UHGV virus genome: UHGV-1543656
DNA: 25,891 nucleotides
Source of the DNA: a virus
Direction: 5' to 3' (one strand)
In this document: positions 11,579-21,015 of the stretch, piece after piece
Numbering within the stretch: the first letter of the stretch is position 1
Layout of the letters: every line of letters starts with the position of its first letter
Position numbers and translations under genes: made by a program
Notes under the pieces: generated by a model
Told to the model about the DNA's origin: nothing
Seen by the model: only the letters and a program-made list of their open reading frames with translations
Databases searched by the model: none

Positions 11579-11980
11579 TTAAACGTGTCTAATAAAAATC
11601 ACCCGATTAACGCCGCGCTGATGTAAACCGCGATTAAGCGTTTGTTCCTCTTCCCCTTTGGCGAAAAACTGTGGATGGCGGACTTCCACCCCATAATTAA
11701 ATTCACCGGGAAGAGAATCGAGAAAATGCCAAAGCGCAGGCAGCTCCCGTGGGCCGAATGTGGCAGGCAGTTGCAGCCAGTATTGTCCAATGCGCGGAGC
11801 CAACGGTGACATGCGGGTCAAAAATTCAGTCACTAAATCATCGCAATGCCGTAATGCTGCCTGATGCGAAATGGTCGCCGGAAACTTAAAACAGAAGCGG
11901 AAGTCATCTGTGGTCTGCTCACGCCAGCGCAGGACAACCTCGGGTTTCGGCAGGGCATAAAGCGTGGTGTTACCCTCCAC
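11579..11980 (-). pseudogene. yecE: 5'-proximal fragment of the host DUF72-family gene, truncated at its 5' end by the prophage and at its 3' end by the serine-integrase element
   Basis: Track ORF starts at a GTG. The in-frame upstream sequence has no ATG back to a stop at about 12038. NCVEGNTTLYALP matches the conserved N-terminal motif of DUF72 proteins. It continues in frame into 53..403 once the insertion is removed. Confidence 0.6.
11595..11601. repeat. attR core (AAAATCA) of the serine-integrase element
   Basis: Junction read aataAAAATCAcccgatt: element sequence to the left, host sequence to the right. Confidence 0.6.
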
Positions 11981-12006
11981 GCAGTTAACATGACGGGTAT
12001 TAAGGA

Positions 12007-13320
12007 TTAACTTACTGATTTTAATAAGCCTCTGGTGTCACTTTGGTGACTATGGGGCATCATTGGGACATAATCTGTCAGCTTCTGATTCAGCATTGCG
12101 ATCTGTTCTGCATTGCTGTCAGTCATCCATGCTCCGTATACATTGAATACCATCTGGGCACTTGCATGGCCCATCTGGCTGGCAATGAAGCTTGGGTTTG
12201 CTCCGGCAGATAATGACCAGCACGCATAAGTGTGTCGTGACTGGTATGCCTTTCGATGCCTGATCCCTGCACGCTTAATGGCTGTTTCCCATGAGTCACC
12301 TACAGAATCGACTTTGTAGACAAAACCTACCTGTTCGCTTTTTCTAACCACTTGAGGGTTAAACACGAAAGTACATTCATGGTTCACTGAACGTCCATAT
12401 TCACGTAGTTGCACCTTGATGTTGTACTGCTTACCCAGTCTTGTCATTTCAGCCTGATTTTTCAGGACACTGATAGCGGGCTGGATAAGGTGCACAACCC
12501 TGTTTGTGCTTGCTTCAGTTTTCGGTAGAGTGAACTCACCAAGTTTCGTATAATTGCGCCTGATGGTAATTGTTCCTGCCTTCAGATCGATATCTTCCCA
12601 GGCCAGGGAGACCAGTTCACCGTGACGCATTCCTGTGTACACAGCCAATGACCACAGGTTTTTCGTCTGCTGATGTCGGCAAGCATCTATCAGGCGAATA
12701 AATTCGTCACGAGTTAGCGGATCTGGCTCTGCCCTGGCTCTTTTAAGAGGCTTAATTCCCTGGAAGGGATTTGCTTCTAAGTAACCGTGATCTGCAGCAA
12801 ACTGAAACATTCCAGCGATTGTCGTCATGTAATAATTTACAGTAACGACGCTCCGTCCTTTTGCTGCTGCTTTGTTTTTCGTTGAATTCTGATACCCGGT
12901 CAGCAAATCTTTCCTGATATACAGCAATTCCTCTTTGGTTACCGATGACACCAGTTTACTGCCTCCAATTTTCGGAACCATCGTTCTTGCAACGGATTCA
13001 TAGCGATTGAATGCATTTGCAGAGATTTCCATTCGTTTCAGATCCAGCCACTTTTCTTCAAGTTCCTTCACCGTAATTTCTTTTTTACTTACCCCAAAAG
13101 CCTGAAGGTTGGGGGAGTCAGGGAACTGTGCAGCATAATCAAAGCTTCCTGTGCGGATGGCAAAACATACTGATGTCCGCAGTTCCCCGGCGATCTTCCT
13201 GTTCTTGGCAGTGTCAGGGACACCAAGATTTTCCCTGACACGTTTACCTTTAAAATTAAACCAGATGCGTAATGTGCCGCCGTGGTTTTCGACGCCTGTT
13301 GGATATTTGACTTTATCCAT
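12007..13320 (-). CDS. int: Tyrosine-type phage integrase
   Basis: C-terminal catalytic region HRKAYQSRHTYACWSL...GHASAQMVFNVYGAWM carries the R..HxxR..Y signature. Located at the prophage end next to xis. Confidence 0.9.
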   Translation of the reverse strand: MDKVKYPTGVENHGGTLRIWFNFKGKRVRENLGVPDTAKNRKIAGELRTSVCFAIRTGSFDYAAQFPDSPNLQAFGVSKKEITVKELEEKWLDLKRMEISANAFNRYESVARTMVPKIGGSKLVSSVTKEELLYIRKDLLTGYQNSTKNKAAAKGRSVVTVNYYMTTIAGMFQFAADHGYLEANPFQGIKPLKRARAEPDPLTRDEFIRLIDACRHQQTKNLWSLAVYTGMRHGELVSLAWEDIDLKAGTITIRRNYTKLGEFTLPKTEASTNRVVHLIQPAISVLKNQAEMTRLGKQYNIKVQLREYGRSVNHECTFVFNPQVVRKSEQVGFVYKVDSVGDSWETAIKRAGIRHRKAYQSRHTYACWSLSAGANPSFIASQMGHASAQMVFNVYGAWMTDSNAEQIAMLNQKLTDYVPMMPHSHQSDTRGLLKSVS

Positions 13321-18340: not shown

Positions 18341-18997
18341 TTAGAAAATATCCCACCTGGCATCAACCACAACACCTACTATTTCGCAATCATTGTCCAT
18401 TTCTATGATTGGATATTGTGGATTAAGGGGCTTTAGAAACGCCTTTCCCATTTCAGAAATATATTTTTTGAATGTTGCTTCATTGGTAGATTTTTTTCTG
18501 GCGATGACGTAACACCCTGAAAAAACTTCTTTATCTGGGTTGACAAGGATCGACATTCCTTCAGGAAATGTTATTCCTACGGGCGAAGTCATTGAGTCTC
18601 CGTGCACTTCCAGCCAGAACCCCCTCTCACCAGCGTATTTTACAGAATGCCTCCAATTATCCTGATCATACATGTTGTAGTCATCACCAGAAGTTGCGAA
18701 TAATCCTGCCTGAACCCAGTTAATTACAGGGTAAGAGTATGCTGTGTCTCTCTGTGGGCAGCTCTTAACATTATTTTCCCAATGCTTATCTTTTTCATCT
18801 CCGTTCTGAAGCCACTGCGGTGAACACTGCAGTGCAGCTGCAACTTTAAAAAGGGTGTCACCGTTGAAACTTTTTGTAAGGCCTTGCTCGGCTTTACTGA
18901 TTGCAACTCTGGTGACCCCAGCTTTTTTAGCCAACGCATCTTGTGTTAACCCAGCTTTTTGCCGTGCGTTGATGAGACGTTCACCTAAAGACTTCAT
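18341..18997 (-). CDS. cI: CI-like phage repressor (HTH plus S24 LexA-type autopeptidase domain)
   Basis: N-terminal HTH (LTQDALAKKAGVTRVAISKAEQG). C-terminal S24 fold with GDSM and a conserved Lys (VIARKKS). Start placed at the ATG at 18997 (MKSLGER) with a GAGAGGAGAAG RBS; the track start at 19072 would lie inside the operator region. Confidence 0.85.
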   Translation of the reverse strand: MKSLGERLINARQKAGLTQDALAKKAGVTRVAISKAEQGLTKSFNGDTLFKVAAALQCSPQWLQNGDEKDKHWENNVKSCPQRDTAYSYPVINWVQAGLFATSGDDYNMYDQDNWRHSVKYAGERGFWLEVHGDSMTSPVGITFPEGMSILVNPDKEVFSGCYVIARKKSTNEATFKKYISEMGKAFLKPLNPQYPIIEMDNDCEIVGVVVDARWDIF

Positions 18998-19017
18998 TTT
19001 TCTTCTCCTCTCATGGC

Positions 19018-19095
19018 TGTTGATACTAAAGTAACAGAATTTCTTGATACTTTGGGTTCCTGTGGTTAACATCGTTGGATAACAAAGTATCTGGT
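19018..19095. promoter_or_regulatory. Right operator/promoter region (OR/PR-like)
   Basis: Operator sites tGATACtaaaGTAAC (19021-19035), TTGATACTTTGG (19044-19055) and GATAACaaaGTATC (19078-19092). Rightward promoter TTGATA (19044-19049), 17-nt spacer, TAACAT (19067-19072). Confidence 0.55.
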
Positions 19096-19108: not shown

Positions 19109-19336
19109 ATGACCCTTTATGAAATATTAAAAATTCAATTTAAAACCAATGCCGCTATTGGTCGCAGGTTCCCAAAGAAAGGAAGGCCTCGTGGCAGTCA
19201 AGGTGTTGGAAAGTGGAAAACGCGAGGTGTTCCGGAGGATGTTGCCATTCTTTGTCATCTGGATACGAGCATTCCATATACACACCCAAGTCTAGCGAAT
19301 ACAGAAGATGACAAGCCCACAGGAGACCAACAATGA
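19109..19336 (+). CDS. Hypothetical basic protein at the cro position
   Basis: First rightward ORF after the predicted PR. No recognisable HTH and a weak RBS, so the call is tentative. Confidence 0.35.
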   Translation: MTLYEILKIQFKTNAAIGRRFPKKGRPRGSQGVGKWKTRGVPEDVAILCHLDTSIPYTHPSLANTEDDKPTGDQQ

Positions 19337-20040
19337 ACACCGCAATTTTTAACGGCAAAGCATCCATGACCAGCGTTGAAATTGCAGAGCTGGTGGGTAA
19401 ACGTCATGACAATGTGAAACGCACTATTGAAACATTAGCCAAAGGTGGCGTTGTCCGGTCTCCTCAAATTGAGGTTTCCGAAAGAATCAATAACTTAGGT
19501 TTTAAAGTTCAATATGAGCATTACCTGTTTGAAGGAGAACAAGGTAAGCGCGACAGCATCATTGTCGTCGCACAGCTCTGTCCTGAATTCACTGCTCGCC
19601 TGGTAGATCGCTGGCGCGAACTGGAAGAACAGATCCGTAAGCCAATGAGCGAAATCGAAATGGTTGCCGCGATGGCTCTTGAAGCAGTTCGTCAGCAGAA
19701 ACGGATCACTCAGGTGGAAGAAAAAGTCAGCCACGTTGCTGAAACAGTCGAGCAAATTAAAAAGGGCACTATTCGTGAGGGCTATGCCGGATATCGCCAA
19801 CTGAAAGCAAAAACCGGTTTGTCAGATGATAAATGCCGCAATCTGGTGAACGCCTATCAGATTCCTACAGACACCCATGAGTTCATGACGCCGGACGGAT
19901 TGTTGTCACGTCGCGCAATTGTTGCTGTGGAACCGTTTATGGCTGCTTTTTATCGGGTTATGGAGGAAGCAGAACCGCGAGGGACTCGCTGGTATCACCC
20001 GAAAATGGGGTTATTTCAGGTTATTGGTTGGCAGCGGTGA
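19333..20040 (+). CDS. Rha-family phage regulatory protein
   Basis: N-terminus MTSVEIAELVGKRHDNVKRTIETL matches the Rha domain signature. Confidence 0.7.
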   Translation: MNTAIFNGKASMTSVEIAELVGKRHDNVKRTIETLAKGGVVRSPQIEVSERINNLGFKVQYEHYLFEGEQGKRDSIIVVAQLCPEFTARLVDRWRELEEQIRKPMSEIEMVAAMALEAVRQQKRITQVEEKVSHVAETVEQIKKGTIREGYAGYRQLKAKTGLSDDKCRNLVNAYQIPTDTHEFMTPDGLLSRRAIVAVEPFMAAFYRVMEEAEPRGTRWYHPKMGLFQVIGWQR

Positions 20041-20066
20041 AAAAAAGCCGGGAGTAACCCGGCTCA
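20040..20066 (-). terminator. Rho-independent terminator acting on leftward transcription
   Basis: Hairpin GCCGGG-agtaa-CCCGGC (20047-20063). On the minus strand it is followed by a run of seven U; on the plus strand there is no U-tract. Confidence 0.55.
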
Positions 20067-20314
20067 CTCAACATCAATAACGGGGAGCTGTTTCGCATAA
20101 AACGGCTCCGAAACATCCAAGAACAGTTCTAAAGATATCAGCAGCTATATGATCATTTCAAGACCAAATATTGATTCTGCAATTTCGGGACGTTACACTG
20201 TCTCCGCACCTTATAAAGCGGGTGCCGGGATTGGCGTCCTGAAATTGATTACTGAGCATAACCGCGCTCATGCGGTTTTTTCGTGTCATGAGCATTGCTA
20301 CGCCCAAATTATGG

Positions 20315-20430
20315 TGGGGCGTACAGGGCCGACTTCGGTCGGGCCGGGTTCGGTAGTCTCCGGTAACGCCAACCCTGTACGTCTCACCACCTCTGTGATT
20401 GGCGTCCCATGTGGTGAGTTTTCTAAAAAA
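20315..20430 (+). promoter_or_regulatory. Structured GC-rich leader RNA upstream of the second Rha gene
   Basis: Hairpin with a cUUCGg tetraloop (gggccgacTTCGgtcgggcc, 20326-20345) enclosed by a long-range stem gcgtacaggg/ccctgtacg (20319-20329 with 20373-20381). Terminator-like stem ctcaccac/gtggtgag plus TTTTCT at 20384-20424, about 30 nt before the ATG at 20452. Confidence 0.4.
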
Positions 20431-20451
20431 CTGACTACCGGGGCTGTCACT

Positions 20452-21015
20452 ATGACTACTCTCCCAACCCTCTCTCAACCTGAAATTGCCATCGTTGATG
20501 GTCAGGCTGTTACATCTTCTTTGGCTGTTGCTGACTTCTTCTCTAAACGTCATGACGATGTTCTGAAAAAGATTCGCATTTTGGATTGTTCTCCAGAGTT
20601 TTGTGCCCGCAATTTTGCGGAGACATCGATTTCGGTAAATCAACCGAACGGCGGTACACGCAAGCTCCCTTGCTATCAAATCACACGAGACGGTTTTGCA
20701 TTTCTTGCTATGGGTTTCACGGGTAAACGTGCTGCCCGGTTCAAAGAGGCATACATCAACGCCTTTAACCTGATGGAGAAGAGTTTATCAGGTGCCGATG
20801 CGTCTGATATGTCAGCTGTCGCACGAAACGCCAGAGGCGTATACCTGCATTTGCGTGAAATCCATCAAATCTGGACAAGCCAGCTTTATCCAATGCTTAA
20901 GGCCGTTGAATCTCCGCTGGCTAGCAAACTGTACGACCGTGTTGGTGATGCTGTTTTTGGCGCTGCACTTGTTGATTCTAGGCTGAATGGTTCTGACAAG
21001 GAGGTTCGCCCATGA
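20452..21015 (+). CDS. Rha-family phage regulatory protein (second copy)
   Basis: Track ORF 20149..21015. The Rha domain begins at the internal Met (MTTLPTLSQPEIAIVDGQAVTSSLAVADFFSKRHDDVLKKI); the upstream 300 nt is treated as structured leader. Confidence 0.65.
   Translation: MTTLPTLSQPEIAIVDGQAVTSSLAVADFFSKRHDDVLKKIRILDCSPEFCARNFAETSISVNQPNGGTRKLPCYQITRDGFAFLAMGFTGKRAARFKEAYINAFNLMEKSLSGADASDMSAVARNARGVYLHLREIHQIWTSQLYPMLKAVESPLASKLYDRVGDAVFGAALVDSRLNGSDKEVRP

Follow-up and report, generated by a model that had tools for sequence, protein, structure and literature searches.

An IsrK-C4-type RNA immunity module very probably forms the leader of the second Rha-family gene in a lambdoid Escherichia coli prophage

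What precedes the second Rha-family gene in this prophage? In the 25.9-kb stretch of viral DNA that we analyzed (hereafter the window), the open reading frame at 20149-21015 on the plus strand is 288 codons long, and its Rha-type start is codon 102, the ATG at 20452-20454. An earlier note on this DNA had remarked that the frame begins 101 codons before the Rha part, as it does, and had read the intervening stretch as a structured leader, perhaps an attenuator, an antitermination RNA or a riboregulator, rather than coding sequence. We conclude that this leader is very probably an IsrK-C4 RNA immunity module of the P1 immI / P4 / Gifsy-1 type, and we are equally confident that the module fronts the gene for a Rha-family regulator of a lambdoid E. 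coli prophage. The IsrK-C4 system itself is already described, and what is new here is another member. Of the earlier proposals the riboregulator stood, having two full-length Rfam matches and covariation of both stems and targets, while a classical attenuator is very unlikely. The stretch 20041-20470 as a whole folds with z = -8.6.

The module opens with a predicted sigma-70 promoter (20171-20199, plus strand), which we read from the sequence as a -35 element TTGATT (20171-20176), a 17-nt spacer and a -10 element TACACT (20194-20199), with the predicted start at G20206. A simple promoter scan with a threshold of 9 left this promoter out because it matches the sigma-70 consensus at only 8 of 12 positions. 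The -35/-10 pair recurs at an unchanged distance in 41 homologues, which come from divergent taxa and have otherwise different flanks. Its counterparts by homology are the annotated P1c4 promoter of P1 and the promoter of isrK in Gifsy-1 (PMC4825925). Given a conserved promoter at 20171-20199, the stretch 20149-20205 is promoter DNA and not transcribed leader. A search for operator-like repeats common to the cI-cro region and the module promoter found nothing convincing. In P1, the corresponding promoter is controlled by C1.

Beginning at the predicted start, the Rfam isrK model (RF01394) matched 20206-20282 on the plus strand over its full length, scoring 59.3 bits against a gathering threshold of 50. 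Two 5' hairpins (20206-20225 and 20226-20241) are followed by an intrinsic terminator, which a terminator scan placed at 20260-20277 plus a U-run at 20278-20281; the T-run is invariant among the homologues, and hairpin 1 is 97.6% paired, with compensatory changes in six of six pairs. The earlier note overlooked the conserved terminator (20260-20281) as well as the promoter. Two decoy sites lie in this 77-nt isrK-like RNA, a1 (ATTGGCGT, 20230-20237) in the loop of hairpin 2 and b1 at 20247-20257. The Rfam model c4-a1b1 (RF03163) gave a weak, overlapping match to the same region, 23.9 bits where gathering is 46.7, yet a1/b1 complementarity is present and co-varies (see below), which indicates that the region is homologous and that the isrK model simply fits it better.

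About 30 nt beyond the isrK-like RNA, the Rfam C4 model (RF01695) matched 20307-20394 on the plus strand from position 1 to 87 of 87, with 82.3 bits (gathering 45) and an E-value of 5e-15. The minimum free energy structure of this 88-nt piece is the Rfam structure, and its energy of -47.7 kcal/mol (z = -6.0) was matched by none of 200 shuffles. A long closing stem of 17 bp (20312-20328 with 20373-20389) surrounds two hairpins, of which the first (CCGAC-UUCG-GUCGG, 20329-20342) is the GC-rich cUUCGg hairpin, nested in a long-range stem, that the earlier note had rightly described. Hairpin 2 (20343-20364) bears the effector loop b' at 20348-20359, and the single-stranded effector a' (ACGCCAA) follows at 20366-20372. 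The closing stem is 99% paired among homologues and 12 of its 17 pairs show compensatory changes; hairpin 1 is 100% paired, with compensatory changes in all five pairs. By homology to the annotated P1 c4 RNA, the mature C4 RNA is predicted to span 20313-20391.

Both exposed effectors find exact complements downstream on the plus strand: a' (20366-20372) in a2 (20399-20405, within the ATTGGCGT target site at 20398-20405), and the b' loop (20349-20358) in b2 (GACUACCGGG, 20433-20442, in a target site reaching to 20443). The b2 site overlaps the Shine-Dalgarno GGGG (20440-20443) that lies 8 nt before ATG 20452, placing one of the two effectors over the ribosome-binding site of the next gene. The same effectors b' and a' are complementary to the decoys b1 and a1 in the isrK-like RNA. 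In the entire window ATTGGCGT has just two exact copies, a1 and a2, and GACTACCG has a single exact match per strand, namely b2 and its complement in the C4 loop. The duplex between the C4 loop and b2 is predicted at -20.5 kcal/mol, compared with -12.9 +/- 2.7 for shuffled targets; single-sequence duplex energies were only moderately better than those of shuffled targets (z about -1.7 to -2.8). An RNAduplex all-against-all matrix of C4 effectors and target regions was set aside, being blurred by conserved stem sequence in the segments.

For covariation we used 41 distinct homologues from Enterobacterales, Aeromonas, Vibrio and Endozoicomonas, counting pairs column by column against slid controls and running searches for complementary runs alongside. 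All stems and all four long-range pairings co-vary. The intramolecular structure is 93% paired, with 28 of 44 pairs compensatory (score 0.416, slid controls 0.06-0.09); the pairings of C4 with its downstream targets, taken together with an alternative helix described below (25 pairs), scored 0.475, and the pairing of C4 with the isrK decoy sites 0.711, both against controls of 0.06-0.13. Five of five core pairs of a'-a2 have changed on both sides, and all eight core pairs of b'-b2 co-vary. The homologues have 32 distinct loops and 23 distinct a' segments, and nearly every one has its exact complement at -20 to -6 (loop) or about -50 to -44 (a') from the ATG and again in the isrK-like RNA; a cognate a2-type site at -50 to -44 is present in nearly every homologue. 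For b2, the longest complementary run averages 9.95 for cognate and 5.13 for non-cognate combinations. Homologues had been suggested earlier as the place to check the leader, and there its base pairs vary compensatorily and it lacks codon-level conservation. A pattern scan for the C4 core also returned 24 viral-contig loci, none of which resembled the window module by nhmmer. Phage 1720a-02, by contrast, has 98.9% identity across the module, and locus L087 carries modules in tandem.

Closer to the Rha gene a further stem pairs CUCACCAC (20383-20390) with GUGGUGAG (20411-20418) and is followed by UUUUCU, 28-34 nt before the ATG; its 3' strand and the tract occupy 20411-20424, plus strand. This helix uses the 3' strand of the C4 closing stem and is an alternative to the C4 fold (-13.8 kcal/mol, z = -2.5). 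It is 94% paired in the 41 sequences, with four of eight pairs compensatory, and it is also present in P1. The stem and U-tract that the earlier note saw some 30 nt before the ATG do exist, and the helix is conserved, but they are not a conserved terminator: the U-tract varies among relatives, and the terminator scan did not flag 20383-20424. We also considered a hairpin over the Rha initiation region (-24.2 kcal/mol, z = -4.1) and rejected it, as the whole lacks covariation support (61% paired versus 59% in shuffles) and just its 4-bp anti-SD core is usually pairable.

Could the leader then be a classical attenuator or antitermination leader, in which alternative hairpins choose between termination at a U-tract and read-through with no trans-acting RNA? 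We regard this as very unlikely, although several features speak for it: a conserved intrinsic terminator (20260-20281), 170 nt upstream of the gene, does lie within the leader and must be read through to make C4 and the Rha mRNA, the C4 closing stem has a competitor in the conserved alternative helix, and the P4 CI RNA system, which Forti reportedly described in 1999, works through premature termination. However, the proximal stem (20383-20418) is conserved while the U-tract behind it is not. The three-way covariation of a' and b' with two sets of targets is moreover the signature of an antisense specificity determinant. Trans action of the antisense RNA is well established in P1, P7 and P4, against a leader that would act with no trans-acting RNA. 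Trans action has likewise been shown in Gifsy-1, in a paper that also discusses premature termination in P4 (PMC4825925), and Rfam classes the families as antisense RNA and sRNA. The regulatory logic would be antisense occlusion of a ribosome-binding site, not classical attenuation.

We compared the module with three reference phages, Gifsy-1, P4 and P1, in all of which isrK, c4-a1b1 and C4 matches occur in a common order, with scores of 79, 48 and 69 bits in Gifsy-1, 60.8, 44.1 and 74.9 bits in P4, and 35, 51 and 68.8 bits in P1. At a1/b1 of P1 isrK is below threshold and c4-a1b1 above it, the reverse of what we found here. In P4 (seqA - CI RNA (seqB) - seqC), the isrK and C4 models match at the seqA and CI RNA positions, and the module is upstream of replication functions as in the present phage; P4 differs in its cargo and in being a satellite, where the host element here is a lambdoid prophage. 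The documented effect in P4 is that transcription of the long left operon, in which kil/eta are translated first, ends prematurely in an immunity-specific manner.

The immI region of P1/P7 (c4-icd-ant1/ant2), reportedly described by Citron and Schuster in 1990 as a c4 antisense RNA operon, likewise has a homologous promoter, an a1/b1 region, C4 RNA, a2 and b2, with b2 adjoining the SD of the next gene as here, and the principle is the same, in that processing of the leader yields an RNA by which the following gene is repressed at the level of translation. It differs in what follows b2. There icd (73 aa) comes first, with ant coupled to it, whereas here the cargo follows directly: between C4 and ATG 20452 we found no separate icd-type ORF, and b2 and the SD immediately precede the Rha start. 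A P1-type ANT/KilAC antirepressor was not found as cargo either, the product here being Phage_pRha and P1 Ant1 being PF03374 ANT. The promoters, a1, b1, c4 RNA, a2 and b2 are annotated in the P1 record NC_005856 (Lobocka et al. 2004).

The isrK-orf45(STnc1160)-anrP region of Salmonella Typhimurium Gifsy-1 has the same succession, equally spaced, of promoter, 77-nt IsrK with terminator, spacer of about 30 nt, C4-type RNA starting AAUUAUGG, a2, GGUGGUGA element, b2 with SD, and ATG. Both modules reside in lambdoid enterobacterial prophages and they share the specificity of the a segments (ACGCCAA / TTGGCGT). Their cargoes, an ORF6N-domain protein in Gifsy-1 and Phage_pRha here, have no detectable similarity; the Gifsy-1 module adjoins the Q antiterminator, whereas this one is between cro/Rha1 and the replication genes; and in Gifsy-1 the orf45 frame closes at a stop of its own that overlaps the start of anrP (ATGA), whereas here the frame enters the cargo stop-free. 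Experiments in Gifsy-1 showed that the promoter is active, that the terminator is read through, that the downstream gene is translationally silent, that IsrK, tested with compensatory mutations, activates in trans, and that a stable RNA, STnc1160, is processed from the position of C4 (PMC4825925). Within the family that Rfam names isrK Hfq-binding RNA, Hfq binding and trans action of the short form on its own read-through mRNA have been shown only for Gifsy-1 (PMC4825925). Barquist et al. (2013) wrote of an 'IsrK-C4 immunity system' in P4 and lambdoid Salmonella prophages, equating IsrK with seqA and C4 with CI RNA (PMC3632133).

By homology with P1, P4 and Gifsy-1, we propose that most transcripts would stop at the 20260-20281 terminator and yield the short decoy RNA, and that those reading through would be cut by RNase P at U20312/G20313 to give stable C4. 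C4 would then block the Rha ribosome-binding site in trans (and in cis), and the untranslated Rha message would probably be shortened by Rho. With that, expression would also be lost from the genes further downstream, which overlap tightly, as far as the replication genes (from 21424 on). The isrK-like RNA, with its a1 and b1, would compete for the effector sites of C4, and this competition is proposed to relieve repression; the variable a and b sequences would determine which phages cross-repress. Published models differ here, C4/CI being a repressor in P1 and P4 and IsrK an activator of a self-inhibited mRNA in Gifsy-1. As no icd-like or separate orf45 gene stands between C4 and the cargo, the coupling step of P1 and Gifsy-1 cannot work identically in this phage.

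The true coding sequence of the second Rha-family gene is 20452-21015 (plus strand, 187 aa). Pfam Phage_pRha matched residues 21-110 of the 187-aa product with 93.9 bits, so the domain starts 21 residues past this ATG, and every homologue keeps the ATG and the codons after it and has GAGG/GGGG 8-9 nt upstream. Variability at the three codon positions is 0.56/0.45/1.01 in the Rha CDS, where third positions vary roughly twice as much as the other two, and 0.67/0.72/0.71 in the leader.

This comparison bears on the reading found in the databases, in which the leader is the N-terminal 'Ash' protein domain of a 288-aa Rha/Ash fusion starting at ATG 20149. PGAP annotates 20149-21015 as one CDS (WP_001538847.1), many phage records draw still longer 'antirepressor' CDSs over the Ash/leader region, and a paper on Stx phages took Ash to be a protein domain of unknown function (PMC8951638). 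The translation of 20149-20451 aligns to positions 1-92 of 107 of Pfam PF10554 (Phage_ASH) with 40 bits, above the cutoff of 26, and the frame is open across the whole module in 34 of 35 distinct enterobacterial relatives whose frame is fused to the cargo. Even so, we find this reading scarcely credible. ATG 20149 is upstream of the conserved promoter and of the predicted start at 20206, and the leader lacks the third-position excess that is two-fold in the adjacent Rha CDS. In Gifsy-1 and in locus L012 the nucleotides are kept and the frame is shifted, which changes the peptide; the Gifsy-1 authors likewise report conserved nucleotides with a shifted frame (PMC4825925). The leader frame has stops in Aeromonas, Vibrio, Endozoicomonas, Phlomobacter and P1, where the RNA is intact, and the changes that it shows compensate one another within base pairs. 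Very long in-frame extensions upstream at other loci (up to 1224 nt), which we considered as real fusion genes, were rejected as antisense shadows of minus-strand genes.

The Pfam family itself points the same way. PF10554 also matches ST64B Sb41, an Stx1 phage 'Ant' and P4 'cI ORF137', and this last, its namesake region in P4, is an old ORF overlapping the CI RNA. Established P4 genetics, reportedly from Ghisotti in 1992, Deho in 1992 and Forti in 2002, makes the CI RNA the immunity factor. Some papers equate P4 epsilon with Ash; this helper-derepression protein matches another family, PF25738. NCBIfam has no model for the leader translation. With no codon periodicity, with frame shifts and with stops in relatives, PF10554 does not behave as a protein domain, and the conserved object here is the RNA, not a polypeptide: the 288-aa PGAP protein and the Pfam 'Ash' domain are translations of this RNA.

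The earlier claim that the leader is not coding accordingly holds in so far as it has no codon periodicity and ATG 20149 is upstream of the promoter, but that it is never translated cannot be claimed for its last 47 codons, which are open in most enterobacterial relatives and whose equivalent is translated in Gifsy-1. Frame analysis of relatives identified an orf45-like reading frame (20311-20451, plus strand) that begins with AUG 20311 at the 5' edge of C4 and runs for 47 codons into the Rha ATG with no stop. Of 49 distinct relatives, 35 have this frame joined stop-free to the cargo, and in them it measures 135, 138, 141 or 144 nt. The frame has neither amino-acid conservation nor codon periodicity. 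It is possibly translated on unprocessed transcripts.

This suggests a reading that adds to the IsrK-C4 explanation rather than replacing it, with RNA processing and translation as alternative fates of one transcript. Transcripts that escape RNase P would be read from AUG 20311 through C4 into Rha, and would give either a 234-aa isoform or a Rha start opened by ribosome transit; we consider such bifunctionality, and either outcome of it, a tentative possibility that we would not bet on. AUG 20311 is invariant in all 41 sequences, but it is just as invariant in sequences whose frame soon closes, after 8-18 codons (Endozoicomonas, Aeromonas and P1, where it closes after 14), and its conservation may reflect nothing more than the pairing of UGG with the CCA-like 3' end of C4. 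The four length classes of the fused relatives are all multiples of 3, and by shuffling we put the chance of such open frames at about 1e-4.5 to 1e-6 over 6-13 clusters; the fused sequences, however, were chosen for lacking stops and are phylogenetically related, and frame +1 of the part after C4 is stop-free too in 8 of 13 clusters. AUG 20311 has no Shine-Dalgarno before it, and the want of codon periodicity also counts against this reading. Gifsy-1 orf45, which starts at the same AUG, was seen as a tagged protein and is required for anrP translation (Hershko-Shalev et al. 2016, PMC4825925).

In P1 the first nucleotide of the c4 RNA is the G of the conserved AUG, and processing would therefore destroy the start codon. 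RNase P would likewise cut inside the AUG here, so that processing or initiation at one codon would decide between repression and expression. That the 141 nt of 20311-20451 serve twice, as C4 repressor with its targets and as 47 codons or a runway for Rha, we think rather doubtful. In this phage lineage a direct in-frame fusion may have replaced the separate leader peptide (orf45 in Gifsy-1, icd in P1). If the dual use is true, Pfam 'Ash' would be the trace left by selection to keep a frame open across an RNA gene, and no protein domain.

For annotation, the IsrK-C4 reading means that pipelines and Pfam call an RNA a protein, under names such as 'Rha/Ash domain protein' and 'ash family protein' or as long 'antirepressor' CDSs, and published comparative work has passed on the reading of Ash as protein. 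Re-annotating the starts of these genes and flagging PF10554 would end a systematic error. For the phage, it means that a second layer of immunity, made of RNA, appears to lie atop the LexA-like cI repressor of the prophage, and that this layer would control the Rha-family regulator and probably also the replication genes behind it. We found the module in 1429 of 5426 complete E. coli genomes (about a quarter), and it is also in many Shiga-toxin phages; being this common, it is relevant to prophage induction and to the cross-immunity of co-resident phages.

The earlier note had read the 300 nt upstream of the second Rha gene (Rha2) as a structured RNA regulator rather than coding sequence, and the features on which it drew were all present. 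The ORF at 20149-21015 has its Rha-type start at codon 102 (ATG 20452-20454), with the onset of the Pfam Phage_pRha domain 21 residues after that ATG, and the region 20041-20470 folded with z = -8.6 against dinucleotide shuffles. A GC-rich hairpin (CCGAC-UUCG-GUCGG, 20329-20342) is nested in a 17-bp stem (20312-20328 with 20373-20389), and a second stem, CUCACCAC (20383-20390) with GUGGUGAG (20411-20418), is followed by UUUUCU. The observation was correct and careful, and its target is an already-known RNA regulatory system. Rfam searches matched the C4 antisense RNA (RF01695) at 20307-20394 (82.3 bits, gathering threshold 45) and isrK (RF01394) at 20206-20282 (59.3 bits, threshold 50), both at full length, while c4-a1b1 (RF03163) scored 23.9 bits, below threshold, overlapping the 5' half of the isrK match.

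The same families occurred in the same order in all three reference phages examined: Gifsy-1 (isrK 79, c4-a1b1 48 and C4 69 bits), in which the module lies immediately 5' of the antirepressor-like gene STM2616/anrP; P4 (60.8, 44.1 and 74.9 bits, respectively), at the positions of seqA and the CI RNA; and P1 (c4-a1b1 51, isrK 35 and C4 68.8 bits), whose record annotates promoters, a1, b1, a 77-nt c4 RNA, a2 and b2. Judged by these matches, the 'orf45 / STnc1160' region of Gifsy-1 is a C4 RNA, and the isrK and c4-a1b1 models describe a single homologous element in two ways. Barquist et al. 2013 (PMC3632133) had already used the name 'IsrK-C4 immunity system' for P4 and lambdoid Salmonella prophages. 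The cargo differs, being ANT/KilAC in P1, ORF6N in Gifsy-1 and Phage_pRha in the window, and the window adds to this known kind a module that carries Rha as its cargo, lacks an icd/orf45 spacer gene and has a leader ORF in frame.

In P1 nomenclature, the module opens with a predicted promoter (-35 TTGATT, 20171-20176; 17-nt spacing; -10 TACACT, 20194-20199; predicted start G20206), which has 8/12 consensus matches and was unlisted by the promoter scan; the -35/-10 pair keeps its spacing in homologues with otherwise unrelated flanks, including those of Vibrio and Endozoicomonas. There follow hairpin 1 (20206-20225), hairpin 2 (20226-20241) with a1 (ATTGGCGT, 20230-20237) in its loop, b1 (20247-20257), an intrinsic terminator found by the terminator scan (20260-20281) and, from terminator to C4, a 29-nt spacer. 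C4 itself (20307-20394) carries the effector loop b' (20348-20359) and the single-stranded a' segment ACGCCAA (20366-20372), and downstream of it lie a2 (20398-20405), the GUGGUGAG element (20411-20418) and b2 (GACUACCGGG, 20433-20442), which overlaps the Shine-Dalgarno GGGG (20440-20443) of the Rha2 start codon (ATG 20452). The a and b 8-mers had no further occurrences anywhere in the 25.9-kb window.

Searching with the Rha protein retrieved 54 genomic loci and 80 viral contigs, and the whole ~290-nt module was found 5' of a Rha homologue in Edwardsiella, Serratia, Citrobacter, Pantoea, Izhakiella, Symbiopectobacterium, Erwinia, Aeromonas, Vibrio and Endozoicomonas. The 84 unique module sequences held 41 distinct C4 effector segments (32 loops and 23 a' segments, in many and varied combinations). 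In nearly every type the exact complement of the loop lay at -20 to -6 from the ATG and that of a' at about -50 to -44, and both complements recurred in the isrK-like RNA. Pair counts on the alignment (n=41 sequences) gave 93% of cells paired and 28/44 pairs compensatory for the intramolecular stems (covariation 0.416; slid controls 0.065-0.086), 85.5% and 19/25 for C4 with a2/b2 and the alternative helix (0.475; controls 0.06-0.13), and 87% and 14/18 for C4 with a1/b1 (0.711; controls 0.06-0.13); none of 500 shuffles matched the observed score of any of the three structures. To judge from the alignment, this is the pattern expected if an antisense RNA and two sets of its targets evolve together at the specificity determinants, and, on the yardstick set by the earlier note, homologues conserve base pairs rather than codons. 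The translation-initiation region forms a self-hairpin that is stable in the window sequence, yet it had no covariation support. The alternative helix (20383-20390 with 20411-20418) competes with the C4 closing stem, is 94% paired with compensatory changes and is present in P1 too; we found no described role for it in the literature.

The module was present in 1429/5426 complete E. coli genomes and 260 phage records. Related prophages carry tandem isrK-C4 modules, two or three complete within ~3 kb and each preceding a short gene (loci L087, 1255-3151; L105, 47-1446; L116, 236-1445; also L015, L054 and L019); a/b specificities vary among modules within one locus, a pattern suggestive of orthogonal RNA switches set in arrays. 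In the window there is a single module, and the first Rha gene (19333-20040) has none. Directly 3' of the latter is a strong bidirectional terminator-like hairpin (20045-20066), which caused a weak, spurious sroD match there; a second, 10-bp hairpin without a U-tract (GGGGAGCUGU...ACGGCUCC, 20081-20110) comes next, before the module promoter.

The immunity mechanisms of P1/P7 and P4 are established. Given the observed parts of the window module, their homology to P1, P4 and Gifsy-1 and their co-variation, we infer its steps from those phages. As in P1/P7, P4 and Gifsy-1 (PMC4825925), the promoter would be active in the lysogen, the terminator would end most transcripts to yield a ~77-nt RNA with a1/b1, and C4 would be processed from read-through RNA. 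Pairing of C4 with a2/b2 would then block the Rha ribosome-binding site, with Rho probably terminating the untranslated message, and the a1/b1 RNA would compete for C4 and relieve the block. Start-to-stop gene overlaps 3' of Rha2 (21012 and 21203) lead towards an HTH replication-initiator-like gene (21424) and an IstB/DnaC-like ATPase (22352) followed by a helicase, and thus repression may reach replication, as in P4. We looked for an operator-like repeat common to the module promoter and the cI-cro region and found none; the LexA/S24-type cI repressor gene (18341-19072, minus strand) has a longest ORF of 243 aa, which PGAP starts 25 codons later (218 aa, 657 nt). Elsewhere in the window, a DUF72 (yecE-like) gene is in two pseudogene halves (about 53-403 and 11579-12025; 161-508 and 11705-12133 in locus L165), separated by an ~11-kb insert with a serine recombinase, a DNA adenine methyltransferase, and tape-measure and baseplate genes. 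The start of the lambdoid prophage's tyrosine integrase immediately adjoins the 5' fragment, and there are therefore two mobile elements at one locus.

Within the leader, the AUG at 20311, at the 5' edge of C4, was invariant (41/41 sequences), and its frame was stop-free to the Rha ATG in 35/49 distinct relatives, with open lengths of 135, 138, 141 and 144 nt, each a multiple of three. Gifsy-1 orf45 opens at the equivalent AUG and closes in an ATGA overlap with anrP; its tagged protein was detected and it is required for anrP translation (PMC4825925). Shuffling put the chance of such an open frame at 1e-4.5 to 1e-6 for 6-13 sequence clusters, a set chosen as open with related members, and frame +1 of the post-C4 part was also without stops in 8/13 clusters. 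Conservation of the AUG may be due simply to UGG pairing with the CCA-like C4 3' end. In P1, the annotated c4 RNA has the G of the corresponding AUG as its first nucleotide, so that, by analogy, RNase P processing and initiation there would be mutually exclusive. We consider translation from 20311 possible, if rather doubtful, and compatible with the C4 antisense model.

Database annotation makes the leader a protein-coding N-terminus. PGAP calls a single CDS (20149-21015), but the conserved promoter sits downstream of ATG 20149; in other records the module is covered by 'antirepressor' genes that are longer still. At some loci, the very long upstream extensions are shadows cast by genes on the minus strand. 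Such a small overlapping minus-strand pair, which looks like a toxin-antitoxin pair, lies 5' of the module in Izhakiella (L012, 2013-2646) and Edwardsiella (L008, 1998-2685), and its antisense shadow gives in-frame Rha ORF 'extensions' of 900-1200 nt. The translation of 20149-20451 does match Pfam PF10554, 'Ash protein family' (40 bits), yet codon-position column entropy was flat in the leader (0.67/0.72/0.71), whereas the adjacent Rha CDS at the same loci had a coding signature (0.56/0.45/1.01). Some relatives, for example Gifsy-1 and L012, retain the nucleotides with the frame shifted, giving a different peptide, a change likewise noted by the Gifsy-1 authors (PMC4825925), and stop codons interrupt the frame while the RNA is intact in Aeromonas, Vibrio, Endozoicomonas and Phlomobacter sequences and in P1. 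From the promoter position, flat entropy, frame shifts and stop codons, we therefore concluded that the 'Ash domain' looks like a translated RNA gene. PF10554 (NCBI 'ash family protein') matches the translated isrK-C4 region in four phages (window, 20149-20451; P4, L163, 8168-8584; L003, 2183-2782; L002, 2311-2781). The P4 match is to the old 'cI ORF137', a frame overlapping the CI RNA, and the family's matches include the corresponding translations in ST64B and an Stx1 phage. The epsilon protein of P4, which has at times been identified with Ash and was sought with PF10554 in a P4-satellite survey, belongs to another family, PF25738. The chief practical value of the finding is the systematic mis-annotation that it brings to light.
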